Assembly: GCA_002304345.1 (NCBI GenBank)
Contig: NEUU01000005.1
Coordinates: forward strand, 165,933 to 229,932
Source of the DNA: Verrucomicrobia bacterium Tous-C9LFEB
GTDB lineage: Bacteria > Verrucomicrobiota > Verrucomicrobiia > Methylacidiphilales > UBA1321
Direction: 5' to 3'
DNA: 64,000 nucleotides
The position numbers were made by a program, and so were the translations under genes. Numbering within the stretch: the stretch's first letter is position 1; each line of letters starts with the position of its first letter. A model generated the notes under the pieces. It saw only the letters and a list, made by a program, of their open reading frames with translations, was not told the DNA's origin and did no database searches. This document shows, piece by piece, positions 2,119 to 63,909 of the stretch.

Positions 2119-3183
2119 ATGAGCAAACCCCTTCGCCTTCTCGCCTTCTGGCCCGCCTCCGATTTCGAGGATTTTCTCGAGCCCGCGTTCTTGAACCGGC
2201 CGGAGTACGAGGTGGAAATCGTCTCGGGCGACCGCACCTCCGGCAAGTCTCCCTACGCCATGGACGGCACGCGCCGCCGCGCCTTGCGCCGTCGGCTGGA
2301 AGCGGGGGAATTCGATCTCGTCATCAGCGGCAACATCTGGAATACCCCCTGGCCCGGCAACAAGGGCTGGTGGACCTCGATGGCGCAGGCCGCGCGCTTC
2401 TTCACCTATAAACAGTCGATGCTCGATGCGTGGTGGGCCCCGTGTTTGGTGCAGGGCCTGACCGATCGCGTGCCCTTCGCGGTGATCGATCTGCGCGATC
2501 CGCATTTTGTCCTGCCTTGCGATTATCGCCTGCTCAAAGGCTGCACCCACTACTTCAAGCGCGAATTATTCGCCTGGCCGCGCCGCTCCCTCCTGCCGCT
2601 CTACACCTATGTGGGCGAACGCCGCGTTGCCCCGCACGAATCAAAATTGTTACCCCTCAGCTACGGCGTCAATCACCGCAAAATTCCGGAACGGGTACGA
2701 TCCATGGCGGAGCGCGATATTGATATTTTCATCAGCGGTCACGGCAATCCCGTGCGCAATGAAGTGCGCGAGCGCTGTCGTAAATTAGCTTCCAAATATA
2801 ACGTGGTGGTGGTCGAGAAGAAGGCCGAGAAAGTGGATTACATCGATTATCTCCAGCGCTCCAAACTCGTCATTTGCACGGAAAGTTACGGCTGCGAAAC
2901 CTGGCGGCAATACGAGGCTTCGTCCGCGGGGGCGGTCCCCGTCATCAATTACCCCTTTGTGCACCATCACATGCCCATGGAGCCCGACGAGCACGCCCTC
3001 TTTTTCTCCATGGCGGGCCAGGATTTCGAAAAGCAGATCGACCGTGCCTTGGCCAACCCCGCCTTGCTCGAAAAGATCTCGCGCCAGACCCGGGAATTCA
3101 CCATCGCGCACAAGGATCGCCGCCGCATTGCCGATTATATCGTGCAGACCGCCCTCGCTCCCTCAAAAAAGTCGCACACCTAG
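2119..3183 (+). CDS. Putative glycosyltransferase (GT1-like C-terminal domain), LPS/polysaccharide biosynthesis
   Basis: 354-aa ORF immediately downstream of the GT9 gene. Its C-terminal region (ICTESYGCETWRQYEASSAGAVPV) resembles the GT1 E-x7-E region. Family assignment is tentative. Confidence 0.45.
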   Translation: MSKPLRLLAFWPASDFEDFLEPAFLNRPEYEVEIVSGDRTSGKSPYAMDGTRRRALRRRLEAGEFDLVISGNIWNTPWPGNKGWWTSMAQAARFFTYKQSMLDAWWAPCLVQGLTDRVPFAVIDLRDPHFVLPCDYRLLKGCTHYFKRELFAWPRRSLLPLYTYVGERRVAPHESKLLPLSYGVNHRKIPERVRSMAERDIDIFISGHGNPVRNEVRERCRKLASKYNVVVVEKKAEKVDYIDYLQRSKLVICTESYGCETWRQYEASSAGAVPVINYPFVHHHMPMEPDEHALFFSMAGQDFEKQIDRALANPALLEKISRQTREFTIAHKDRRRIADYIVQTALAPSKKSHT

Positions 3184-3426
3184 CAAACGTAGCCAACCTA
3201 ACGCAAACGTTCGCCCCGTTTTTCTGCTAGAACAGGAGTCATGCGCGAACTCCGCCCCTTTGAAATTTCAAATCTGAAATTTGAAATCCATCAGTTTGGC
3301 CTACACCGACCGCGACACCCAACAGAGTCGGTTGATGCTTGTAGCGCGTTGTCGACGCTGTTTTTTTATGGAGTTACGCGACCCTTGACTTTGCTCACGT
3401 CCCATACAATCCTGTGCGCACCATGA
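3183..3426 (+). repeat. Repeated upstream module (copy A) containing a conserved small ORF (3241..3426, 61 aa)
   Basis: About 75-80% nucleotide identity to the inverted copy at 12953-13148. It contains the palindromic core TTTCAAATCTGAAATTTGAAA. The small-ORF stop overlaps an in-frame ATG of the downstream gene (ATGA). Confidence 0.6.
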
Positions 3427-4436
3427 AGCGGACCCTTACAGCAGTGATGGCGTTGGTGGCGGCGACAACCCTGTGGTTTGGTTTGACACCTCATTCCCAG
3501 GCGCAGACGAAGAAGCCGGCCAAGCTGATGTTGATCCGCTATAATGAAGCCGCCGATGCCGAGAGCGGCGAGAAAGCCATCCGTGCCGGTCTCACCAGCG
3601 CGGGCCTCGTCGATGGCACCGATTACATTCTCACCGTCTCCTCCGCGCAGAACGACATGCCGACGCTGATTAATCTCGTCGACAAAGCGGTCAACGACAA
3701 GGCCGACATCCTCATCCCGCTGCAATCCCAGAGCCTGCAACCCGCCGTGCAGCGCGCGCCGAAAACGCCGATCGTTTTTCACCTCGTCTCCGACCCGATC
3801 CTGCTCGGCGTCGCGAAGAGCGATACCGACCACCTGCCCATGGTCACCGGCGCGTACATCAAAACCCAGCCTTCCGAATTCGAAGCGGTCGTCGCCCAGA
3901 TCAAGTTCCTCATTCCCGGCGTCACACAAATCGGCACGCTCTACGTCCCCGGCGAAGTGATCTCCAACGAACAAAAGGATCTCCTCATCGAAATGGCCGC
4001 GAAGTACAAGATCAAGGTCAACGCCGTTCCGGTCGACACGGTCAGCGATATCACCAACGCCGTGCAGGCCCTCGTCAGCCAGCAGCCCAGCGCCATCGTC
4101 ATGATCGAAGGTTCCATCCCGAACGGAGCGTTCTCTGCCGTGGCCGCGCAAGCCACCCGCTCGCGCATTCCGATCTTCGGCTTCACCGCCTATCAGGCGA
4201 AAAACGGCGCGGTCTTCTGCGTCGTGCCCGACGTCGGTCGTGGAGGTAAAGCCGCCGGCGAAATGGTTTCGCGCATTCTCAAGGGCGAAAGCCCGGCCAA
4301 CATTCCCCTTTACCGCATGCCCTCCGGCTTGAAGTTGATCAACTCCACCGCGGCCCGCCGCATCGGCATGGAAAACATCTCGACCGATACAATCAAGGGC
4401 GCGGCCGATGTCGTTCCCGGCTCTTTTGCTCCTTAG
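3414..4436 (+). CDS. ABC transporter substrate-binding protein (COG2984-type periplasmic component)
   Basis: Signal peptide, then a TKKPAKLMLIRYNEAADAESGEKAIRAGL... region typical of COG2984 binding proteins. The true start may instead be the M at 3423. Confidence 0.7.
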   Translation: MRTMKRTLTAVMALVAATTLWFGLTPHSQAQTKKPAKLMLIRYNEAADAESGEKAIRAGLTSAGLVDGTDYILTVSSAQNDMPTLINLVDKAVNDKADILIPLQSQSLQPAVQRAPKTPIVFHLVSDPILLGVAKSDTDHLPMVTGAYIKTQPSEFEAVVAQIKFLIPGVTQIGTLYVPGEVISNEQKDLLIEMAAKYKIKVNAVPVDTVSDITNAVQALVSQQPSAIVMIEGSIPNGAFSAVAAQATRSRIPIFGFTAYQAKNGAVFCVVPDVGRGGKAAGEMVSRILKGESPANIPLYRMPSGLKLINSTAARRIGMENISTDTIKGAADVVPGSFAP

Positions 4437-4477: not shown

Positions 4478-5296
4478 TCACGCGGCGCGTTTGGTCGAGC
4501 GGAAAAATTGCAACCAGACCATCACAGCCGTCGCGGCGAACATCGCGGCGGAGAGTAGTTGACCCTGCGTGAGCCAGCCGAAGAAGTAGCCGATGTTGTC
4601 GTCCGGTTCGCGGAAGAATTCCCCCACGATGCGCAGCACGGGGTAGGCCCCCATGAAGGTGAGTGAGACGATGCCGGCGCGCTTCGTCCTGAAGCGAAGG
4701 AGAAGAAGAATCGCGAAGAGCAGGAGCCCTTCCAGTCCGGCCTCGTAGAGTTGCGATGGATGGCGCGGCAGCGGAACGCCGTCCGGTCCGCGCGGGGCGT
4801 CGGGGAAGATGACGGCCCACGGCACGGTGGCGGGGCGACCCCAGAGTTCGCCATTGATGAAATTCGCCACGCGACCCAGCGCGAGCGCGGGCGGCGTGCA
4901 CAGGGCGGTCGCATCCGCGAGAACGTAGAAGGAGATTTTTTGGCGACGGGCGAACCAGGCGATCGCCAGGATGGAGCCGACGATGCCGCCGTGACTGGCC
5001 ATGCCGCCTTGCCAGACGAAGAAGATCGAGAGCGGATGGCGGACCGTGGCGTCCCAATTATAGAGCAGGCAGGAGGTCAACCGACCGCCCACGATCACCC
5101 CGATGATCATCGCGGTGAGGAAATCGACAATGGCGTCTTGCGAGAGCGGGAGCCAGCCACGTTTCGCCTGCCAGACCAGCCCGAAGTAGAGGCCGATAAA
5201 GCCGACTGCATACGCCAACCCATAATAGCGGATGCCCCAATTCCCACCGAAATGGATCAGGTAGGGACTGAGATCGTGGACATAGTACGCAAACAT
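4478..5296 (-). CDS. lgt: Prolipoprotein diacylglyceryl transferase
   Basis: 272-aa multi-TM protein whose N-terminus (MFAYYVHDLSPYLIHFGGNWGIRYYGLAYAVGF) is characteristic of Lgt. Confidence 0.9.
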   Translation of the reverse strand: MFAYYVHDLSPYLIHFGGNWGIRYYGLAYAVGFIGLYFGLVWQAKRGWLPLSQDAIVDFLTAMIIGVIVGGRLTSCLLYNWDATVRHPLSIFFVWQGGMASHGGIVGSILAIAWFARRQKISFYVLADATALCTPPALALGRVANFINGELWGRPATVPWAVIFPDAPRGPDGVPLPRHPSQLYEAGLEGLLLFAILLLLRFRTKRAGIVSLTFMGAYPVLRIVGEFFREPDDNIGYFFGWLTQGQLLSAAMFAATAVMVWLQFFRSTKRAA

Positions 5297-6981: not shown

Positions 6982-7358
6982 GCTGTCTTGTGAGCCTCTT
7001 TCAAACGATTGCGAAGGAGTAGGAGATCGCCGTGGATATCCTTCCTCGCCGCCCTTCCACAATCCCTGACGGCGCGGCCATTTCCTATTGAGGGATAAGC
7101 TCTCAGCCCGGAAAAGCGCCCGGCAAAATCTGCCGGTTTTTTTGGAGTGGGGCTGGAGCGTCGTTGTCGCAGCCATCCAAGATCGCTGAGGATATTGGCC
7201 GGCTGCTCCGCCTCGCCCAGCCTCCCTATTCTTGGCAACTCCACCCCAAAAAGATCGTGGATAGGTTCTTAGGACCTGAAAAGTTTGGCCTCCTACGCAT
7301 TGCGTTAAGTTTTACTTCTGCGCGGACGATTTAGTGAACAACCAATTCGTTCAACGGG

Positions 7359-10854: not shown

Positions 10855-12030
10855 TTATGGCTTGGTCGCGTCGGGATCGAGAGCACCGGGGGCCGGTTTG
10901 GCAATGGGGGTCGACTCGGCGGGAGGGGGCGGAATCTGGCCAGGGCGGGGTTGAAGCGTCACTTTCATCTCCACGCGCTGCAACGGGTTATCGCGGCCAT
11001 CGCGCTGAAGCGCGGAGATACGGTCGACCACTTCCATGCCGGAAATGACCTTGCCGAAGACGGTGTATTCGCCGTCGAGGAAGGGGCAGTCGATGACGCA
11101 GATATAAAACTGGCTGCCGTTGGACGACTTGAGCGGATTGACGTTGTTGGGGAGGCGGGCCATGGCGACGGAGCCGCGCTTGTGCTTGAGTTTGATTTCC
11201 GCTTGTAACGTGTAATCGGGACCACCTTTGCCATAGGTGGCGCGGTCTTCGCCCTTGCTGTTGGGATCGCCGCCCTGAATCATGAAATCGGGGATCACGC
11301 GGTGGAAGGTGGTGCCGTTGTAGAAGCCTTCGCCGGTGAGCTTTTCGAAATTCGCCACGGTCAGGGGCGCGGCCAGCGGGTCGAGTTCAATGGTGATCGC
11401 CCCGAGTTTGGTTTCAATCACGGCGACTTGTTCGCCAACGGGTTTCGGCGTGGCGGGAGCGGGCGTTTCCGCGACGGCAGGTGCAGGCGTGGGAGTGGGG
11501 GCCGGTGCGGCGGGAGTTTCGACAGGCGCGGGTGCTGCCGGTTGGGTATCCACTTTGGGCGCGGCGGTATCGACCACGATGGATTCCTTCACCTTGACCT
11601 CGACCTGTTCCGGACTGGGGGTGGTGATGGGACCGGAGCCGGTGGCCGATTTGTCGGGCTTGGGCAACTTCAAGTCATCATCAGTGGTGGCGAGGCCGGG
11701 GGTTTCTACTTCCGATGTTTTGGAGGAGGGAGAGGATTTCTTGGCCGGAGTGGCCGGGGTAGAGGGTGTGGAAGTCGTCGCCGTGGTGGTCACGACGGTC
11801 GTTTTATTTTTGATCTGCGACGGCTCGGTGGTCGGATCGGCGGCGCGTTTGCGGGCTACATTTTGGTCGAAGGCAGTGGAGGCTCGTCCCTTGAGCGGAA
11901 TTTGTGGTCCGATGATCGCGGGGTCATTCTCCTCTTTGGAGAACTGCGCGGAAATTTGCGGATCGTAAGCACAACCCACGATCAGGAGTGAAGCGGCCGC
12001 GAGTAAGAGGGAGAATCGAAATGCGCTCAA
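10855..12030 (-). CDS. Peptidyl-prolyl cis-trans isomerase, cyclophilin type, lipoprotein with a Pro/Thr/Ala-rich linker
   Basis: Lipobox (LLIVGC). A ~200-aa low-complexity P/T/A-rich region. C-terminal cyclophilin core ([15 protein letters not shown]...SQFYICV...[10 protein letters not shown]). Confidence 0.85.
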
Positions 12031-12911
12031 GAGGAAGCCAGTTGCAAAGGTGGTTCGATGATCGTGACGGCGTTCGGCCCGACAGACAGCCGCTCGCCAA
12101 TACGGGCATGCTGCCGTTGCACGTAGCCTAGCGCAATTCCTTTTTCGAGCGCCGGAGAATAAGCGGAACTGGTGAGGGTGCCGACCACCTTATCGCCCGC
12201 GCGCAACTCGGCGCCGGGGGCGGGGATTTCCGGTGTGTCCGACTGGAAAAGAAGCAGGCTTTTGTTCACATGGCCGATGCTTTTGATGCGGGCGATGGTT
12301 TCCTGGCCGAGGTAACAGCCCTTGGTGTAGCTGATGCCGTAGCGGTCGAGACCCGCTTCGGGCGGGAGGTTTTCCTCGGTCATGTCCACGCCCCATTTGG
12401 CGAGGCCATGCTCGAGACGCAGCGATTCCACGATGTCGTCCGGCAACCAGGGAAAACTCGGTTCACTGGTGCCCGCAATCCAGAAGTCGTGACCGGGAAG
12501 GCCGAAGCGAGCGTTCGCAAAATTCTGAGACACATCAGCCGGGGTGGAACCTTCCACGGAACCGATCAGGTGGAAAAGCGTCCACTCGTCGGTGACATCG
12601 ACCAGCTCGGCGTCGTCCGCGATGAGGTATTTCTGCAGGCGCTGGTCGAGCGCCTCGCGCAGTTCGAGGGGCGCATCGATCCAGAGCGCATCGGCGGTGG
12701 CGCTGATGAAGCAATCGCCCACGAATTTCCCCTTCGCATTCGGCACGGCGGCGTAAAGAGAGCGGCCTGCGGCGAGCTTTTTGATGTCGTTGGTGACCTG
12801 CCCATTGAGGTAGCGCACGCGGTCATTGCCGGTGAGCTTCCACAGGGCGCGCGACAGCCGCACGTAGCCGGGTTTTCCGGCGCGGAGTGAGCGATAGAGT
12901 TCCAGGTTCAT
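12027..12911 (-). CDS. ygfZ: Folate-binding YgfZ / GcvT-like aminomethyltransferase family protein
   Basis: 294 aa. N-terminus ([32 protein letters not shown]) matches the YgfZ/GcvT family. Overlaps the PPIase gene by 4 bp. Confidence 0.7.
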
Positions 12912-12952: not shown

Positions 12953-13148
12953 TCACGGCATCGTGGTGAGAAAAATAAAGACCGTCGACAAACGACTACA
13001 AGAATCGACCGCCTCTGTTGGGTGTCGTGGTGGGTGTCGACCAAACCGATGAATTTCAAATTTCAGATTTGAGATTTCAGAGAGGCGGAGATGGGGCATG
13101 GGCTATTTATAACAGAAAAGACGCCAGAACGTTTGCGTTAGGTTTGCT
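12953..13148 (-). repeat. Repeated upstream module (copy B, inverted) with a conserved 48-aa small ORF (12953..13099, minus)
   Basis: Reverse complement aligns with 3183-3400. The encoded peptide MPHLRLSEISNLKFEIHRFGRHPPRHPTEAVDSCSRLST... parallels MRELRPFEISNLKFEIHQFGLHRPRHPTESVDACSALST... in copy A. Lies 41 nt upstream of the ygfZ start. Confidence 0.6.
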
Positions 13149-13207
13149 GCGTGAGCTAGGTGTACGAAATCTTTTGCTTTTTTTCCCCGAAAATCGGTTA
13201 ACCTGCC

Positions 13208-14020: not shown

Positions 14021-15733
14021 ATGGAAACAATCGGTATGAAAAATTGGACCATTGGTAAGCGAATCATCTTCGGGTTCGCCAGTATCATCCTTATCAGCGC
14101 CATCCTTGGAATCTTCGCCTTCGTGCGAGTGAACTCCATTAATCACGAATCAAATCTCATTGCCAAGACAGCGGTTCCCACCTCGGTCTTGTGCGGAGAA
14201 ATGAAGTACAATCTGAGAACGGTGCTGCTCTCCACGTACCAGCACATCGGCAGTAATGACAAGGCGGACATGGCGCAACTGGAGTCCACCATTGATAAAG
14301 CGAGAGCGCGCAATACGGAAATCTTTGCCGAGCTCGACAAACTGGTGATCGATCCGAAAGGTCTCGCCCTGCTGGAAAAGGTCAAGGGCGCGCGGGGCGC
14401 TTACGCGAAAGCGACGAGCGCGGTGATGGAAATCAGCAAGAAGGGTAATGAGAACGAAAAAGCCTATAACCTGGCCCGCACCGAAATGGATGGAGCCGCC
14501 ACGGTGTACACCGCCGAATTGGATAACCTGAATGCCTTCAGCAAGGAGTCCATGTACCACGCGCTCACCGATATTCAAGAAGACGTGGCGGGTTCCAAGC
14601 TCGGGATTTTGATCGGTCTCGCAACGGCGCTCGTCGTGGGTGTGGTGTTGGCCTATGTGATCATCTCGGCCGTGAGCCGGGCGTTGACCTCGATTGCGAA
14701 CGCGCTTGGTGAAGGTTCCAACCAGATCGCCAGCGCGACGTCGCAGTTGTCGTCCACAAGCCAGTTGCTGGCGGAAGGGGCGAGCGAACAGGCGGCGTCA
14801 CTGGAAGAGACCTCCTCTTCGATGGAAGAGATGGCGAGCATGGTGACGGCCAACGCGACGAGCGTGCAGGATTCCAAGACGCTGGCCAGTGAGACGCGCC
14901 AGACGACCACGCAGAATGTGAGCCGGGTGCAGGAGCTGAAGAGCTCGGTGACGGAAGCGCAGAGCTCTTCAACCGAATTGACTCAGGCGATGGAAGCGAT
15001 CAAGCAGTCGAGCGATTCGATCGCGAAGATCATCAAGACCATCGACGAGATTGCGTTCCAGACGAACATCCTCGCGTTGAACGCGGCGGTGGAAGCGGCC
15101 CGGGCGGGAGAAGCCGGCATGGGCTTCGCCGTGGTGGCCGATGAAGTGCGCAATCTGGCCAAGCGCAGCGCGGATGCGGCGAAGGAAACGGCCTCGATCA
15201 TCGAGGACTCCATCCGCAAGAGCGAGAATGGCGTGAAGGTGAACGAGCAGGTGGTGAAGAACCTCACCGACATTGATACCAAGAGCAAGCAGGTCGATAA
15301 CGGTCTGCAGGAGATTCTCACGAAGGTGGGCAAGGTCGACGAGACGATGGGGCAGATCGCCTCCGCCTCGAAGGAACAGAGCTCGGGCATCAGCCAGGTC
15401 AATATTGCCCTGACGCAGATGGACAAGGTGACGCAATCCTCCGCGGCCAGTGCCGAGGAAACCGCCAGCGCCGCGGAAGAACTCAACGCCCAGGCCATGG
15501 AACTCAAGGGCGCGGTGGATCAGCTCCTGCGCTTGGTCGGGTCCAAGTCGGGTGGAGCGGCCACCCCGGCTCCCACTCATGCCAGCCAGAGCCGCGTCTC
15601 CGCTCCGTCAACGGGGCTGAAGAAGACCTTCACCACCCCCAGCCGCTCCACGCCCACCAAGGCCGCTCCGGCCTCGGCCAAATCGGGTGAGTCGATTCCG
15701 ATGGAGAGCGACTTCGAAGACATGCATAATTGA
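14021..15733 (+). CDS. Methyl-accepting chemotaxis protein (4-helix-bundle sensor, HAMP, MCP signalling domain)
   Basis: N-terminal TM, periplasmic helical domain, second TM. Highly conserved MCP signalling core ([37 protein letters not shown]). Confidence 0.9.
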
Positions 15734-16163: not shown

Positions 16164-17840
16164 ATGAAAAATTGGACCATCGGCAAGCGCATCATCTTTG
16201 GCTTTGCCAGTATCATCGGCATCTCGGCAATCCTGGGAATTTTTGCCTACACACGGATTCTGTCGATCAACAAAAACTCCACTGAGATTTCCGATCAATC
16301 GATCCCCACTTTCGCCAATGCCAGTTTGGCCAAGTACAATCTGACGGCGAGTACCTTGGGGGTGTTCCAGACCCTCACGCTCAACGATCAAACCGAGATC
16401 GATCTGCTTAAAGCCAGGTTGGGGGCGATCACCGAGTCGCAGACCAAGGCAATGGCCGCGCTGGAGTCGCTCCTGACTGAACCCAATGAAAAGGCCATGT
16501 TTGAGAAGGTGAAAGGTGACCGGGCGCCCTATCTCAAGGCCCGTGCGAACCTGATCGCGGTGGGGCGTCCGACTGCTGAGAATGAAAAGGCGTACAACAA
16601 GGCCTTCCAGGAATTCAATGCCGCCAATGACCAATACGTCAAGGACCTGGAAACGTTGATCACCTATAGCCAGGGCGAACAACAGCAGGCGACGCTCAAC
16701 ATCGTTTCGGCTGTCACCAGCTCCAAGGTGGGAATCCTGCTCGGACTGGCCATCGCTCTGGTCGTCGGCGTCTCTCTGGCTTTCGTCATCATCAGTAGTG
16801 TCAGCCGGGTGCTGACTTCGATCGCGACCTCGCTGGGTGAGGGTTCCAACCAGATCGCCAGCGCGACATCCCAGTTGTCGTCCACGAGCCAGTTGCTGGC
16901 GGAAGGGGCGAGCGAACAGGCGGCGTCGCTGGAGGAGACCTCCTCCTCGATGGAAGAGATGGCGAGCATGGTGACGGCCAACGCGGCGAGCGTGCAGGAT
17001 TCCAAGACGCTCACGAGCGAAACGCGTCAAACAGCCGTGCAGAACACGGAGCGCGTGCAGGAACTCAAGGGCTCGGTGACGGAAGCGCAGACGTCTTCGA
17101 CCGAATTGACGCAGGCGATGGAAGCGATCAAGCAGTCGAGCGATTCGATCGCGAAAATCATCAAGACCATCGACGAGATTGCGTTCCAGACGAACATCCT
17201 CGCATTGAACGCGGCGGTGGAAGCGGCCCGGGCGGGAGAAGCCGGCATGGGCTTCGCCGTGGTGGCCGATGAAGTGCGCAGCCTGGCCAAGCGCAGCGCG
17301 GATGCCGCGAAGGAAACGGCTGCGATCATCGAGGACTCCATCCGCAAGAGTGAGAACGGGGTTCGCGTGAACGAAGTCGTGGTGAGCAAGCTCGTTGACA
17401 TCGACACCAAGAGCAAGCAGGTCGATAGCGGCCTGCAGGAGATTCTGGCAAAAGTGGGCAAGGTCGATGAGACGATGGGACAGATTTCCTCGGCGTCGAA
17501 GGAGCAGAGTTCCGGTATCAGCCAGGTCAACATTGCGCTGACGCAGATGGACAAGGTGACGCAATCCTCCGCGGCCAGTGCCGAGGAAACCGCCAGTGCC
17601 GCGGAAGAATTAAGCGCGCAGGCGATGGAGCTGAAGGGCGCGGTGGGCCAGTTGCTGGAATTGGTTGGCGGTAAGAATGGCGCCAGCTCGAGCCCGGCTC
17701 CGTCGGTCGTCCGTACCCGGTCGACTCCTGTGTCGTCGAAGAAGAATGCCTTCGTGTCGGCCTCTCGCACGAGCGCCGCGCCAGCCAAGAAGGATTCCGG
17801 GATTCCGATGGAGAGCGATTTCCACGATATCCATAATTAA
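16164..17840 (+). CDS. Methyl-accepting chemotaxis protein (tandem paralog of 14021..15733)
   Basis: Same architecture. The signalling/HAMP region is ~95% identical at nucleotide level to the upstream paralog, whereas the periplasmic sensor region has diverged. Confidence 0.9.
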
Positions 17841-20022: not shown

Positions 20023-20040
20023 GATGGGTGCCTTTTTTTA

Positions 20041-20133
20041 GACGAAATTAACGAGATTTACGAAATTGAAGAAAAGGCAAAGCTCAACGCCTTTCATTCC
20101 GTTTCAAATTCCGTTAATTCCGTAAATTTCGTC
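20041..20133. repeat. atp intercistronic quasi-palindromic AT-rich repeat R1 (atpD|atpC gap)
   Basis: Left arm GACGAAATTAACGAGATTTACGAAATTGAA and right arm TTCAAATTCCGTTAATTCCGTAAATTTCGTC. Each arm is three 9-mer units (T/A)ACG(A/G)(A/G)ATT, in inverted orientation around an AT-rich core. Confidence 0.8.
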
Positions 20134-20149
20134 AAAATCTTTTCTTTGC

Positions 20150-21601
<1,452 letters not shown>

Positions 21602-21605
21602 TTAA

Positions 21606-21720
21606 GACGAAATTAACGAGATTTACGAAATTTGAAAAAGGCGCGAGGTGCTTGTTTGTTTCCTATTTTTCACTTCTATTTCTTGTTTTAACTAATTCCG
21701 TTAATTTCGTTAATTCCGTC
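21606..21720. repeat. atp intercistronic repeat R2 (atpG|atpD gap)
   Basis: Same terminal arms as R1 (GACGAAATTAACGAGATTTACGAAATTTGAA ... AATTCCGTTAATTTCGTTAATTCCGTC) with a different AT-rich core. Confidence 0.8.
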
Positions 21721-21743
21721 AAAAAGTTTGTTTTGCCTTGTCT

Positions 21744-22619: not shown

Positions 22620-22743
22620 GACGAAATTCCTTAAAGGCAGTTTTGACGAAATTAACGAGATTAACGAAATTGAAAGACAGGAAAATCTTGAGTTTTTCTT
22701 TCTCTATGGGTTATGAAATTTCGTAAATTCCGTTAATTTCGTC
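22620..22743. repeat. atp intercistronic repeat R3 (atpA|atpG gap)
   Basis: One extra partial left unit (GACGAAATT at 22620), then GACGAAATTAACGAGATTAACGAAATTGAA ... GAAATTTCGTAAATTCCGTTAATTTCGTC. Confidence 0.8.
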
Positions 22744-22761
22744 TAAAAATTCTTTCCCTTC

Positions 22762-24721: not shown

Positions 24722-24741
24722 TTTTTGAAGGGGATTTTTTT

Positions 24742-24854
24742 GACGAAATTAACGGAATTTACGAAATGGAAAGGCAGGAAGGCTTCGATCCGATTTCAGC
24801 TTCTTGTCTCGTTATTTTGTTTTAATCAATTTCGTTAATTCCGTTAATTTCGTC
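24742..24854. repeat. atp intercistronic repeat R4 (atpF|atpH gap)
   Basis: GACGAAATTAACGGAATTTACGAAATGGAA ... CAATTTCGTTAATTCCGTTAATTTCGTC: same arm structure as R1-R3. Confidence 0.8.
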
Positions 24855-24873
24855 TAAAGCTTTTTCTTTTCGC

Positions 24874-26638: not shown

Positions 26639-27083
26639 AAGGAAAGGCTAAGTATGATTGTCAGATTTGGATTTTAGGCAAGTCTAAGTTGTGAAAAATT
26701 TCACAATCTCTTCTAATGGTTAAAGTTCAAGGACTTATACTAATACGGTTAAGTAGAAGTAATAATGGGTGGGTAAGTGTCTTTAGACGAAATAATTACA
26801 CTTTATGAAAAAGTGCCGGTGCCGACCTGTTTTCGTCTCGAAACGAATCACCCTCTCTTCTCCTCCCTCTGTAGACCGGCGTGTCGGGTGGGTCAAACCC
26901 TTCTTAAAAAGACCTTTTTAGGCCCGGTCGCCAAAGGGGTATCGGTAGCGATCTTTAAAAAGTTTGGCAAAAAATGCCATTAAATTACGAGAGAGGCACA
27001 GCGTAACTCCTTATGAAGTTGGTGGTTAGTAGGAGTAAAAAGCCGAAATATCGCTCACTAACAGGATCAGGGTGACACTCCCT

Positions 27084-27210
27084 GTCCGAGAGCTTGCGCC
27101 CGCCGAAGCCACCGGCTTCGGCTACACCCGGAGTTCCATTGAGAAGTTCACCTGTCGCGATAGCGTTGTAGCCGAAGCCGGTGGCTTCGGCGGGCGCAAG
27201 CTCTCGGACG
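27084..27210. repeat. Perfect 41-bp inverted repeat (48 bp with one mismatch) around a 40-bp spacer; MITE-/cruciform-like element
   Basis: Left arm CCGAGAGCTTGCGCCCGCCGAAGCCACCGGCTTCGGCTACA (27086-27126) is the exact reverse complement of 27167-27207. Each arm also contains its own palindrome, GCCGAAGCC-acc-GGCTTCGGC. Confidence 0.85.
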
Positions 27211-27490
27211 GGGGCTCATAGGTCTTGAGTGTCATTTCTGCTGTGGATTCGCGACCTAACAAAGGCATGCGAGTGGTGGCGCTGCCGCTGTCGCTGACAT
27301 GAACCTCGCTCGACACGATAAGGTTATTTACTAATCTCAACTACTTTATACCGCATAAAAAAGCGGGTAAACTGCTTGCTGAAAGGCGAATGCGATTGAT
27401 GCTTAAGGAGCTAAATGACCTGACTTTTTGGAAATTCTGATTGCATCTTGTGGCAGAACCCGTAACTTGCTCGCTCAAGAAAGGATACGA

Positions 27491-28793: not shown

Positions 28794-28849
28794 CGTGTCG
28801 TGGGGGCTCTAGAGCGTTTTAAATAAAACTATAGCCGCTGGTGCCTTGC

Positions 28850-28900
28850 TGTAGGGCGGCTCGGTGAGCCGCCATGGCGCTTCACCGAAGCGCCCTACAG
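28850..28900. repeat. REP-like double-hairpin element (copy 2)
   Basis: TGTAGG-[GCGGCTCGGTGAGCCGCC]-at-[GGCGCTTCACCGAAGCGCC]-CTACAG: an outer TGTAGG/CCTACA stem enclosing two GC hairpins. Confidence 0.75.
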
Positions 28901-30208: not shown

Positions 30209-30408
30209 CCGATTTCTCCGCACCCTAGAAGTCCGCCTGTTGGTTGGCAAGCCGCCTGTCTTTCTCATTTGAACCTGCGTGACGGCAGCGCTGAGCCTTG
30301 CACCCGGTGCGCACCGCTTTCGGTTCTTGTCACAGTGAGTTAATTCATCGGCGTTCTCAACCTTTCTAGGGCGGATTTCGAGTTCATTGTCGCATCCCAA
30401 ACAATCCC

Positions 30409-30545
30409 AGCCGATCCTTCGACAAGCTCAGGATGACGGGTTGGGGAGGTAATCTCAAATGATCGTGAGGAGTTCTGGAGAGAGCAGAAAGTTATCTGAA
30501 ATATTACTTTCACTCCACGTCATCCTGAGCTTGTCGAAGGATCAG
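30409..30545. mobile_element. MITE-like element, family A copy 1 (TIR GATCCTTCGAC-nn-GCTCAGGATGAC)
   Basis: CCGATCCTTCGACAAGCTCAGGATGAC ... GTCATCCTGAGCTTGTCGAAGGATC flank an ~80-bp core. No coding capacity. Confidence 0.7.
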
Positions 30546-30667
30546 TTGGCTTGCTCCACGAGTCTTAGCGTTGCGACAATCTAGTTGAAAAAGGCCCTAA
30601 TATCGTACTTCGGTCCTTCCTGATTCGCTTGTCAGCGGCCAAAGGAGAGCTATAGATTGACCTCACT

Positions 30668-34095: not shown

Positions 34096-34245
34096 CCTTG
34101 CCCGCCGATCCTTCGACGAGCTCAGGATGACGTGGAATGAAGGTAATGTCGTAGGGTCATCTTCACATCACACCAGAACTCCTCGCGATCATTTGAGTTT
34201 GCCACCCCCAACCCGTCATCCTTGTCGAAGGATCGGTGGGCAAGG
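34096..34245. mobile_element. MITE-like element, family A copy 2 (inverted relative to copy 1)
   Basis: CCTTGCCCGCCGATCCTTCGACGAGCTCAGGATGAC ... GTCATCCTTGTCGAAGGATCGGTGGGCAAGG. Core is the reverse complement of the copy 1 core. Confidence 0.7.
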
Positions 34246-34411
34246 TTTCGGAGTCATCGTGTTCCGCGTCGGCGGGGGGGCGTTCTCATCAGAACCGACT
34301 CCGTTCAAGGGGCTTGAGGGACTGCTCGTGGACTGGCGTCGTAGCGATTCCGCATCCACGCTTGCCCCGCGCGGAGTTTTAGGGCATCTTTGACCCTCAC
34401 GTTTTACGCTT

Positions 34412-35467: not shown

Positions 35468-35480
35468 CGTGACGTTCTTT

Positions 35481-35530
35481 TGTAGGACGGGACTGCGTCC
35501 CGTCGCGGCGGTTCACCGAACCGCCCTACA
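35481..35530. repeat. REP-like double-hairpin element (copy 3)
   Basis: TGTAGG-[ACGGGACTGCGTCCCGT]-c-[GCGGCGGTTCACCGAACCGCC]-CTACAG. Confidence 0.75.
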
Positions 35531-35699
35531 GCAAGACACCTGCATCCGTCTGCTACAATGAGGTCCTTCGAGGTGTATGCTGGGTTAGCATCGCTGAGTC
35601 CAGCGCCGCGCTGCTATTAGTTATGCTGTAAAGTCGTCATTTCTCGCAGAATCCGCTTGGCGTTAATAAGTTGGAAGCCGTATAACACTGTTCCCCCTT

Positions 35700-39221: not shown

Positions 39222-39300
39222 GCAGCGGAGAGTTTCTCGCCGAGCTCGCCAAGAACGCAGAGGAGGGGATGGGGTTTGAGATGGATAAAGACCGAACCTG

Positions 39301-39444
39301 CCCCTTCCACCCGATCCTTCGACTTCGCTCAGGATGACCAGTGTGACGCTGGACCCGCTTGCTGATTGGCTGCGCCAATCGCAAAAGACATTCGCTTTCA
39401 CACTCTGTCATCCTGAGCGAAGTCGAAGGATCGGGTGGAAGGGG
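39301..39444. mobile_element. MITE-like element, family A copy 3 (perfect 36-bp TIR)
   Basis: CCCCTTCCACCCGATCCTTCGACTTCGCTCAGGATGAC ... GTCATCCTGAGCGAAGTCGAAGGATCGGGTGGAAGGGG. Core differs from copies 1-2. Confidence 0.75.
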
Positions 39445-39465
39445 CGGTGGATTTTTTGGATAGCC

Positions 39466-39492
39466 GCGGCGGTTCGCAGAACCGCCCTACAA
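39466..39492. repeat. REP-like element (copy 4, single hairpin)
   Basis: GCGGCGGTTCGCAGAACCGCC-CTACAA. Confidence 0.6.
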
Positions 39493-39525
39493 CGCAGAGA
39501 AGACCGGCATTACACTCGCGCGCTA

Positions 39526-45816: not shown

Positions 45817-45865
45817 ATACACCTGCGGCGATCCAGCTTAAAGTAACATTCTATGCCCTCTGTTG

Positions 45866-45996
45866 ACACACCCCGGCGCTTTGCGCCACCCCTCTTATTA
45901 GAGGGGACTCCTGCTTGCCCGCTCTTGGGTAACGATGAGTTGCGACAGGAGAAGTCCCCTCTAATAAGAGGGGTGGCGCAAAGCGCCGGGGTGTGT
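45866..45996. mobile_element. MITE-like element, family B (perfect ~45-bp TIR with nested palindromes)
   Basis: ACACACCCCGGCGCTTTGCGCCACCCCTCTTATTAGAGGGGACT ... AGTCCCCTCTAATAAGAGGGGTGGCGCAAAGCGCCGGGGTGTGT. The track ORF 45853..46071 is an artefact of this element. Confidence 0.8.
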
Positions 45997-56183: not shown

Positions 56184-57056
56184 TTAAGGAGTGGCTTTCA
56201 GCAAATCCGGTTCCACGGTGGCGATCTGGGATTGGTTCACCCAGGCCGATTTGCCTTTTTCGTACCGGACCAAAACGTAATCGCCGTATTTCTTCTCCGC
56301 GTTGACCGAGTCACCTTCGGGCAGCGTGGTCATCACCTCGGATTTATCAAAGGGCGAGACGAGCAGCGAGGCTTGCTTGACGATGACGATGGCCTCGTGC
56401 CGATCCTGCACCGACATCGCTCCGCAGGCGACGATGAGAAAAAGCACCGCCACGTTGAGGAAAAGAATCAATCGCCAGATCGGCGTGAGAAGTGGCGTGC
56501 TGACGCCGACGCGCTGCAACCACTCAGGCCGTACCAACCGCACGACCCAGAGCAGACAGAGGAGGGAGAAGGCGAAGCTGGCCGCCCACGCCCATTGACT
56601 CGGGTTCAGCGATTTCAGGAGCACGCGCCACCACCGCTCGGAAGGTTGCGGCAGGCCGGATTGGGTGCGGGCATATTTCAGGTTGGCGTGAATATCCGGG
56701 TCGCGCGGGTCGAGCCGCAGCGCGCGCTCGTAGTTGAGAATAGCGAGTCCGACCTGGCCATGACGGTAGTAAGCGTTACCGAGATTGAAGAGCACTGAGG
56801 CGGAGTAACCGTTTTGCTTGAGGAGATTTTCGTAACCGCTGATGGCCTCAGTGTATTTGCCCGAGCCGAACGCGCGATTCGCTGCGTCGAAGGCCGTATC
56901 GGCGGGCGCGGCGTGAAGCAGGCCCGAGGACAAGAGTATGAGTAATAGCAGCAAGATCAGCTTGGTTCCGAATTGTAGGGCGGTTCTGTGAACCGCCGCG
57001 GCGGCACACAGTGCCGCCCTACAACACGGATTTACATCAAGGGTAACGTGCCTCAT
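56184..57056 (-). CDS. BatE-like TPR + SH3-domain protein
   Basis: TPR repeats (YTEAISGYENLLK...LGNAYYRHGQ...AILNYERALRLDP), a TM segment and a C-terminal SH3-like region. Last gene of the Bat-type operon. A REP element lies within the annotated N-terminus. Confidence 0.65.
   Translation of the reverse strand: MRHVTLDVNPCCRAALCAAAAVHRTALQFGTKLILLLLLILLSSGLLHAAPADTAFDAANRAFGSGKYTEAISGYENLLKQNGYSASVLFNLGNAYYRHGQVGLAILNYERALRLDPRDPDIHANLKYARTQSGLPQPSERWWRVLLKSLNPSQWAWAASFAFSLLCLLWVVRLVRPEWLQRVGVSTPLLTPIWRLILFLNVAVLFLIVACGAMSVQDRHEAIVIVKQASLLVSPFDKSEVMTTLPEGDSVNAEKKYGDYVLVRYEKGKSAWVNQSQIATVEPDLLKATP
56974..57024. repeat. REP-like double-hairpin element (copy 5), at the batD|batE junction
   Basis: TGTAGG-[GCGGTTCTGTGAACCGCC]-[GCGGCGGCACACAGTGCCGCC]-CTACAA. 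Confidence 0.75.
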
Positions 57057-63803: not shown

Positions 63804-63834
63804 GACCTGTCCAGTTCCAATGTTAATCTGCTGA

Positions 63835-63886
63835 CACACCCCGGCGCTTCGCGCCACCCCTCTTATTAGAGGGGACTCCTGCTTGC
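63835..63886. mobile_element. MITE-like element family B, half copy (single TIR arm)
   Basis: ACACACCCCGGCGCTTCGCGCCACCCCTCTTATTAGAGGGGACTCCTGCTTGC is near-identical to the arms at 45866/45952. No partner arm is seen to the right within the window. Confidence 0.65.
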
Positions 63887-63909
63887 GTGCTCCGGAATCG
63901 ACGCAGTGC

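Follow-up and report, generated by a model that had tools for sequence, protein, structure and literature searches.

A sense-oriented repeat module upstream of unrelated genes in freshwater and peat Verrucomicrobia, possibly a copied promoter/leader cassette

Module copies at four sites and three loci

The window analyzed here is a 64,000-nucleotide (nt) stretch of contig NEUU01000005.1 from Verrucomicrobia bacterium Tous-C9LFEB, a metagenome-assembled genome (MAG) from a freshwater reservoir (PMC5673642). It carries two copies of a short module in opposite orientation, with 80% mean column identity in the pairwise alignment, and each lies upstream of and co-oriented with a gene, as a first-pass annotation of this DNA had proposed. 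Copy A occupies 3172–3368 on the plus strand (nhmmer profile match 3172–3366, E = 6.7e-62) and precedes the gene for an orphan ATP-binding cassette (ABC) substrate-binding protein with a signal peptide (PF04392; 3423–4436, plus strand). Copy B occupies 12971–13167 on the minus strand (nhmmer match 13167–12974, E = 2.5e-59) and precedes ygfZ, of the GCV_T folate-binding family (12027–12911, minus strand). A repeat search of the window returned the same pair as inverted arms of 128 nt (3240–3367/12973–13100; 83%) and 68 nt (3165–3232/13107–13174; 76%). The strings that the annotation had quoted as shared are found in the window only at these two copies: the 18-mer AACCTAACGCAAACGTTC at 3195–3212 (+) and 13144–13127 (−), with 0.02 sites expected by chance, and the 20-mer TCAAATCTGAAATTTGAAAT at 3268–3287 (+) and 13072–13053 (−), with 0 expected. 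The module profile found no third copy across the 64 kb.

Each copy holds an open reading frame (ORF) that begins at an ATG invariant in all copies that we compared. The predicted ORF of copy A (3241–3426, plus strand) spans 61 amino acids (aa) and is not a called gene; its stop, TGA at 3424–3426, overlaps the ATG at 3423–3425 (ATGA) from which the signal peptide of the substrate-binding protein starts. The ORF of copy B (12953–13099, minus strand) spans 48 aa and stops 18 nt past a run of T residues and 41 nt before the ygfZ ATG (12911), so both junctions are as first described. The positions of the copies were also right, but the ORF ends had been taken as the limits of the repeat: similarity already holds from ~70 nt 5′ of the ATG, and its other limit is the T-run (3367 in copy A, 12971 in copy B). 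The repeat unit is therefore ~197 nt long and not coextensive with the ORF.

Two observations concern the neighborhood of copy A. The PF04392 gene is followed by no permease or ATPase gene, the next gene being a convergent lgt (4478–5296). On the other side, a glycosyltransferase-like gene (2119–3183) has its last 4–6 codons and its TAG within the 5′ end of the copy (TCGCACACCTAG, 3165–3183); in copy B, TCGCACACCTAG lies between genes, so this gene may have had its original 3′ end replaced on insertion.

Two further full copies bring the comparison to four (A, B, L122 and L126) at three different loci. In a relative whose YgfZ is 88% identical (L122), the module lies at the orthologous ygfZ position, where its ORF begins at the same start and is intact over 50 aa. 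The fourth copy (L126; Joint Genome Institute (JGI) 3300029989) lies directly upstream of and co-oriented with a glycoside hydrolase family 42 (GH42) beta-galactosidase gene. We reached it through P0121 (81 aa, E = 3.5e-7), the product of its ORF, which JGI had called as a gene; it comes from another habitat and another locus and keeps all conserved blocks at ~70% overall identity. Five other ygfZ loci (L117, L119, L121, L130 and L131), with YgfZ identities of 80, 76, 76, 71 and 66%, have no module, and the tadA–ygfZ spacer measures 72–165 nt in module-less relatives with both genes on the contig versus 296 nt in the window. Its absence from these more distant loci makes the module an insertion, polymorphic at the orthologous ygfZ site: present in the window and in L122, absent from the five relatives. 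Its ends in the four-copy alignment, TCGCACACCTAGC... and ...TTCTCACCA, are not terminal inverted repeats, and a target-site duplication could not be defined, as the empty ygfZ sites are too diverged.

In all four copies, the downstream start lies 29–115 nt from the module end and the module is in the sense orientation. The downstream genes are of three unrelated kinds: the PF04392 binding protein, ygfZ and GH42. Two copies lie within the 64 kb, and the next 8 kb past the end of the window contain no other. A metagenome scan for the promoter block plus the AT-rich core of the module gave 0 matches, one for the core plus CCAACAGAG gave a junk match (L125) and a doubtful relative (L124), and scans of viral sequences gave one chance match and nothing else. 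In the sequences searched, no full copy beyond the four came to light, and the module is restricted to a small group of freshwater and peat Verrucomicrobia related to Methylacidiphilales.

The doubtful relative deserves its own description. At L124 (JGI Ga0187817_10001642, 3326–3018, minus strand), the core is followed by CCCCCAACAGAG, a hairpin and T7, upstream of a signal-peptide glycosidase (alpha-galactosidase-like), and the locus adjoins a DeoR-type regulator. A 102-codon frame runs through the core, and its stop overlaps the start of the gene (ATGA), like that of copy A. There, CCCAACAGAG is in a different frame (spacing +14 nt), and it is uncertain whether the locus is homologous to the module (nhmmer E = 2.7e-7, partial match).

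Conserved blocks and the retained reading frame

The four-way alignment places long invariant blocks, namely TAACGCAAACG, TGYTAnAA, CATGC, TGAAAT, TGAAATTT, CCCAACAGAG and TTGTCGACG, between variable stretches. Given the overall divergence, neither the three invariant runs of 9 nt or more (P = 0.003) nor the total of 38 nt in runs of 8 nt or longer (P = 0.0003) would be expected. Parts of the module must therefore be under selection at the nucleotide level. One of the blocks lies upstream of the ATG, and those inside the ORF include four-fold degenerate sites. We conclude that the module is a real, lineage-restricted repeat that is partly under selection.

The upstream block, TAACGCAAACG, lies at 3199–3209 (+) in copy A and at 13130–13140 (−) in copy B, as an 11-nt run invariant in four of four copies within the exact 18-mer common to A and B. 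Of a pair of imperfect direct repeats of ~18 nt (ACCTA..C.AACG), it makes up the second, 18 nt upstream of a −10 hexamer, and it presumably serves as a contact for a regulator or a sigma factor. The hexamer belongs to an extended −10-like box, TGYTAnAA, that all four copies keep, with the invariant CATGC 6–7 nt downstream amid variable flanks. In copy A, this putative promoter element is TGCTAGAAC (3225–3233, +), with the hexamer ending 7 nt before the ATG; in copy B, it is TGTTATAAA (13106–13114, −), ending 6 nt before it. Across the four copies, the arrangements are TAGAAC-7-ATG, TATAAA-6-ATG, TATAAC-7-ATG and TAAAAC-7-ATG, and as far as letters can tell, the spacing is the geometry of a leaderless start. 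AGGAG(G) is found only in A and L126, 1–2 nt from the ATG. By inspection, neither a sigma-54 nor an extracytoplasmic function (ECF) sigma nor a canonical −35 reading gave a convincing match, the sigma-70 scan being negative. We also set aside a LacI/PurR-type operator reading of ACGCAAACGTT, of which only the left half-site is conserved.

The wider window gives some context for such a start. Shine–Dalgarno (SD)-like motifs precede only ~14 of its 81 ORF calls, and some Verrucomicrobia have been reported as SD-scarce (PMC10783764). Many starts in the window follow leaders that are rich in C and A and poor in G, examples being cacaacaacacacaatcaatATG (14021) and accacaccacacaacaaaaattATG (16164). 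Between the module and ygfZ lies a native promoter-like stretch, TTGTGCATT...CTCTAGC (12950–12915), that is also conserved in module-less relatives, and the ygfZ promoters of relatives have similar TAGnnT-type boxes.

Downstream of the ATG comes the AT-rich core, which in copy A consists of four tandem heptamers of the form YTSAAAT (TTGAAAT, TTCAAAT, CTGAAAT and TTGAAAT; 3259–3287, +) and in copy B lies at 13053–13081 (−). The invariant TGAAAT and TGAAATTT belong to this core. It is followed by a C/A-rich, G-poor stretch that ends in CCCAACAGAG (3318–3327, +, in copy A; 13013–13022, −, in copy B), an invariant 10-nt run that takes in four third-codon positions. The module closes with a terminator-like hairpin. 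In copy A, this spans 3321–3367 (+), with TTGTCGACG at 3349–3357 and T7 at 3361–3367, an RNAfold energy of −15.2 kcal/mol and a weak terminator call at 3346–3358; in copy B, it spans 12971–13017 (−), with TTGTCGACG at 12991–12983, TTTATTTTT at 12979–12971 and −15.7 kcal/mol. Hairpin and U6–7 are present in three of the four copies (A, B and L122; −12.8 to −15.7 kcal/mol), and in three of four the −10 box and the hairpin with its T-run delimit, at the level of the consensus, ~125–130 nt. A candidate antiterminator, GUUUGG/CCCAAC (H1), overlaps the terminator arm; its pairing is weak in A and B, with only L122 and L126 having a strong version. As the strengths of the two structures run in opposite directions across copies, we claim no switch, and an H1/H2 terminator/antiterminator model around CCCAACAGAG was dropped as a conserved feature, its strengths being inconsistent across copies.

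The frame is open from the same ATG in four of four copies, one of which came from a protein search able to return only intact ORFs, and the sole indel inside it measures 3 nt. Copies that keep the nucleotide sequence with a broken frame, which the first-pass annotation had named as the mark of a non-coding repeat, do not occur among the four. With all frames kept, the module may contain a regulatory upstream ORF (uORF). The case for a conserved peptide of ~50–60 aa, named in the heading of the annotation, fares less well beyond the shared start and frame. Variable columns fall 12/15/22 by codon position in the four-copy alignment, and shuffling its columns gives P = 0.045 for BLOSUM similarity and P = 0.11 for synonymous change, both uncorrected for the choice of frames, and P = 0.03 for a stop-free frame. 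Between A and B, differences fall 7/9/10, so the synonymous changes that the annotation had pointed out are at chance level, and the proposed check by the ratio of nonsynonymous to synonymous substitution (dN/dS) yields 0.60 (P ~0.11).

Composition and divergence point the same way. GC contents at the three codon positions (GC1/2/3) of the ORF are 0.53/0.45/0.48, with GC3 ranging from 0.45 to 0.48, versus 0.64/0.43/0.74 in window genes, and the ORF frame is not favored by a codon-usage model that finds the right frame for 98.5% of 50-codon segments cut from real genes. The orthologous copies B and L122 differ at 21% of positions, the same as four-fold sites of ygfZ (21%); identity at their first and second codon positions is only 82%, versus 92% and 96% in ygfZ, and their peptides are 64% identical where YgfZ is 88% identical. 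C-termini are unrelated, lengths are 48, 50, 61 and 81 aa, the stop lies beyond the T-run in every copy (in L126, 5 nt before the downstream start) and the peptides share no conserved run of one amino acid. Searches of Pfam, NCBIfam and the Protein Data Bank (PDB) with the peptides gave no match, and a profile built from the peptides of copies A and B retrieved no candidate protein. An exhaustive HMMER search with those two peptides against 1.84 billion representative proteins returned P0121 and a repetitive false match (P0122), and a four-peptide profile against 5.8 billion clusters returned P0121 only, leaving one called homologue among ~15 billion proteins. AlphaFold2 gave a mean predicted local distance difference test (pLDDT) score of 50.8 and a predicted template modeling (pTM) score of 0.24, uninformative values because the alignment is shallow. 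In our reading, the peptide sequence is not what is conserved, and the 'conserved peptide' as such is weakly supported; divergence near the neutral rate is expected if translation, rather than the peptide, is selected.

A promoter/leader cassette and its rivals

Among the three readings offered at the outset, a mobile promoter/leader cassette, a regulatory uORF and a small-protein family, the first is the best supported, the second is possible and the third is weak. Any reading has to accommodate a repeat, an insertion polymorphism, block-wise nucleotide constraint, sense orientation and a retained frame. We tentatively favor, at somewhat less than an even chance, a copied, sense-oriented promoter/leader cassette that would act in cis and might carry a leaderless uORF. 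The cassette idea holds best because the extended −10 box and the upstream block are conserved, the module is absent at five ygfZ loci and three unrelated genes follow it in the sense direction. The additional suggestion of a leaderless uORF fits the sense placement near gene starts, the −10 box and upstream block, an AUG at the putative transcript start and a frame kept while the peptide drifts.

We infer the promoter, transcript ends, translation and regulatory effect of such a cassette from its letters, and the sequence of events would be as follows. The cassette would be copied into the 5′ regions of unrelated genes, where the direct repeats ending in TAACGCAAACG and the extended −10 box could give a second, separately regulated promoter. 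Transcription would start at or beside the invariant AUG, 6–7 nt past the −10 box, and the leader would then present, in order, an AU-rich array of four heptamers, a C/A-rich stretch to CCCAACAGAG and a GTCGAC-centered hairpin with its U-tract. Hairpin and U-tract might end part of the transcripts, and those that read through would carry the downstream gene. Ribosomes may translate the frame from the 5′-terminal AUG, as a leaderless uORF that continues across the hairpin; what matters would then be the act of translation, and not the peptide, as translation could suppress the terminator and deliver ribosomes to starts that have no SD motif. In its most elaborate form, a portable, self-contained unit would have both a regulated promoter and a leaderless uORF, the uORF would read through its own terminator, and downstream expression would depend on uORF translation; (YTSAAAT)n would be a cross-phylum cis-element bound by a conserved host factor in SD-scarce bacteria, and the coupling would resemble that of pyrBI without nucleotide or amino-acid specificity. 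We regard this full version as a long shot.

Several findings weigh against the cassette. The sigma-70 scan (TTGACA/TATAAT) finds no canonical promoter, the extended −10 box going uncalled because it has no −35 match, and few genes in the window (4 of 81) have a leaderless-type −10 box. Sense orientation in three of three independent loci carries a P of only ~0.125, and the PF04392 protein, ygfZ and GH42 share no obvious function. The L126 hairpin is weak (−7.3 kcal/mol) with a broken T-run, the hairpin register varies between copies, and no terminator/antiterminator pair is consistent across them. The open extension of the frame beyond the module to the next gene start, tried as a signal and rejected, matches chance (P = 0.56 and 0.30). 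At ygfZ, the retained native promoter-like region means that the gene does not need the cassette, and a hairpin and T-run between module and gene would equally fit an insulated, independent unit.

The main rival proposes that the copies are a small family of paralogous genes for trans-acting small RNAs, each making, from a regulated promoter, a ~125–130-nt RNA that runs from AUGC to the hairpin and U-tract, with the ORF incidental and with the AU-rich heptamers and CCCAACAGAG as single-stranded protein-binding or seed regions. We think this somewhat less likely than the cassette. Similarity does run from ~70 nt before the putative start to the T-run in A, B and L122; hairpins of about −13 to −16 kcal/mol followed by U6–7 stand in three of four copies, in a window where clear intrinsic terminators are used elsewhere (for example, at 7120 and 15765). 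Block-wise conservation that takes in four-fold sites, an ORF of un-gene-like GC3 and codon usage that always stops past the T-run, and a native ygfZ promoter retained downstream would all be natural for an RNA gene. However, Rfam 15 gave no match at gathering thresholds in the whole window and none even at E ≤10 on 3100–3500. The RNAalifold consensus reaches only −4.75 kcal/mol with 0 of 14 pairs compensatory, although four sequences give little power, and single sequences fold with z-scores of −1.14 and −0.30. L126 has a degenerate terminator, and all copies are in sense and adjoin a gene start. An ATG exactly at the predicted start and a frame kept in four of four copies through a 3-nt indel are things that a small RNA does not need.

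A decaying, non-functional dispersed repeat, the remnant of a small mobile or duplicated element whose similarity reflects only recent common descent and whose ORF and motifs are accidents of history, strikes us as improbable. It would account for B and L122 having diverged as far as four-fold sites of ygfZ, for presence or absence among relatives, for the few copies known, for the lack of a conserved RNA structure and for a window and related genomes full of other short dispersed repeats. The block test contradicts it (P = 0.003 and 0.0003), as does the agreement in orientation and position relative to genes at three loci; the module has neither terminal inverted repeats nor a definable target duplication, and L126, from another habitat and locus, has kept every block at ~70% identity.

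The least probable reading, and a poor bet in our view, is a functional small protein of 48–81 aa, made from a leaderless mRNA and sharing an N-terminal ~43 residues (M..L...EISNLKFEI..FG.H...HPTE....S.LSTLF): the ATG and frame kept in four of four copies, the third-position excess (12/15/22), slightly conservative replacements (P = 0.045) and the calling of one homologue, P0121, as a gene speak for it, but it fits the composition and divergence data worst, with dN/dS ~0.6, orthologue peptide identity of 64% against 88% for YgfZ, GC3 of 0.45–0.48 against 0.74, an in-frame codon model that does not win, unrelated C-termini and lengths, four-fold sites invariant inside the blocks, no Pfam, NCBIfam or PDB relative, P0121 as the only related match in 1.84 billion proteins, a hairpin and U-tract inside the ORF and, as weak evidence given the shallow alignment, the low AlphaFold2 scores.

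Should the module work as a promoter/leader unit, these uncultured Verrucomicrobia of fresh water and peat would be seen to rewire the expression of unrelated genes by copying a ready-made regulatory module. The module would then also offer a first entry point to the architecture of promoters and translation starts in an SD-scarce and poorly studied lineage.

Heptamer arrays, other repeats and known systems

The palindromic core described in the first-pass annotation is not peculiar to the module but a heptamer array that several phyla share. When one genome per species was scanned with a codon-degenerate core query, at least 115 loci (L001–L115) matched, and the 26-nt array GAAATYTCAAATCTSAAATTTGARAT occurs in at least 115 species-level genomes of Acidobacteriota, Planctomycetota and Verrucomicrobiota, with some Desulfobacterota, cyanobacteria and Bacteroidota. 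Among the matches listed, none of the core loci has the module flanks, and 77 cores are intergenic, 18 partial and 24 within ORF calls, with no orientation bias toward neighboring genes. A core with unrelated flanks across phyla is a building block of many elements and not evidence for the peptide. Rfam found only tRNAs on 18 core-carrying loci, and the core string was not found in the searchable literature.

The settings of the core vary. It often sits in the loop between long inverted repeats, such as the CACAGAGACACAGAGACACAG arms in L012, L038, L082, L087 and L098, and in L010, L051, L085 and L088 it lies a few nucleotides before start codons. In seven Acidobacteriota MAGs (L002, L004, L065, L083, L092, L104 and L105), it stands 3′ of a hairpin, GTCATCCCGAAC-CCCCTTnAGGGG-TGAGGGATC, and also 3′ of hexamer arrays, (GCATTT)n or (GCCGTT)n, ~30–130 nt upstream, as part of a larger composite repeat. 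In two GC-rich genomes (L003, 1970–1995; L109, minus strand, ~4388–4417), an identical core lies in frame within class I methyltransferase-like ORFs, where it encodes EISNLKFEI just before a ...DA...F.D.sFD motif, in AT-rich codons that look foreign to the host gene.

Other short repeats are scattered through the window. Long inverted repeats of GTCATCCTGAGCGAAGTCGAAGGATC lie at 30407–30550, 34100–34266 and 39300–39445, the 39-nt arms at 39300/39407 being 100% complementary; the unit resembles the Acidobacterial GTCATCCCGAAC...GAGGGATC hairpin, with an apparently compensated stem (ATCCT/AGGAT versus ATCCC/GGGAT). A literature search on the GTCATCCTGAGCGAAGTCGAAGGATC string and the GTCATCCTGAGCGAAG repeat found nothing relevant. 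An AT-rich family with a 9-nt period, TTTCGTAAA TTCCGTTAA TTTCGTCTA and its complement, occurs at 20037–20158, 21600–21736, 22632–22759, 24729–24870 and 26771–26810 as inverted pairs between genes and lies 20–30 nt upstream of several starts (20022, 22601 and 24721, all on the minus strand); another copy lies in the ygfZ upstream spacer of L130 (~605–635), the locus where the window has the module. At least five copies of a GC-rich palindromic repeat, TGTAGGGCGGTTCnGTGAACCGCCGCGGCGG, occur on both strands (952–984, 28843–28875, 35480–35537, 39452–39498 and 56967–57030). Inverted repeats of 47–50 nt (ACACACCCCGGCGCTTTGCGCCACCCCTCTTATTAGAGGGG...; 94–98% complementary) at 45859–45996 and 63827–63892, and also at 27080–27213, represent one family at two distant sites. 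A 300-nt direct repeat (83%; 14594–14893/16722–17021) lies inside neighboring paralogous genes (14021–15733 and 16164–17840) that also share their 3′ ends (15694/17801). The wider puzzle, that intergenic DNA of Acidobacteriota, Planctomycetota and Verrucomicrobiota repeatedly contains this AT-rich heptamer array as well as other short repeats, could outweigh the module itself.

The array recalls the short tandemly repeated (STRR) heptanucleotides of heterocystous cyanobacteria in being a tandem heptanucleotide array that is mostly intergenic in many genomes. It differs in its unit, YTSAAAT, which is AT-rich and quasi-palindromic, in its 4–6 units and in its occurrence in Acidobacteriota, Planctomycetota and Verrucomicrobiota. 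As a whole, the module can be set beside the Correia elements of Neisseria, the BOX and RUP elements of pneumococci and the ERIC elements of enterobacteria, intergenic repeats of 100–200 bp in hundreds of copies, which can act as promoters or be transcribed along with genes and in which spurious small ORFs are common. Like them, it is short, inserted near genes and polymorphic between relatives; unlike them, it has no terminal inverted repeats or target duplications that we could find, numbers two copies in 64 kb and four overall and is uniformly in sense. Paralogous small-RNA families with shared regulated promoters, such as Qrr1–4, PrrF1/2 and AbcR1/2, offer another comparison: the module shares with them ~80% identity between copies, a conserved upstream block, further conserved blocks and a terminator-like hairpin with a U-tail, and it departs from them in having no conserved fold, covariation or Rfam match and in its invariant AUG at the predicted 5′ end, its kept frame and its sense placement beside gene starts.

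The closest parallels may lie among leader-peptide attenuators whose ORF spans the terminator and among actinobacterial leaderless leader peptides. In Escherichia coli pyrBI, the leader ORF runs through the attenuator hairpin, and the mycobacterial leaderless Cys-uORFs are leaderless uORFs of Actinobacteria. In Corynebacterium glutamicum, trpE, leuA, ilvB and aroF have leaderless leader peptides (PMC3890552). Unlike leader-peptide attenuators, the module contains no regulatory codon run and no conserved antiterminator/terminator alternative; it also stands apart from known attenuators in that the whole unit, promoter-like part included, is duplicated at ~80% identity before functionally unrelated genes, and in that its translation is only predicted. 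What it would share with pyrBI and the leaderless leaders is a short ORF at or near the 5′ end of a predicted transcript, upstream of and co-oriented with a gene, and with pyrBI-type attenuators in particular, a hairpin and U-tract between the start of that ORF and the gene.

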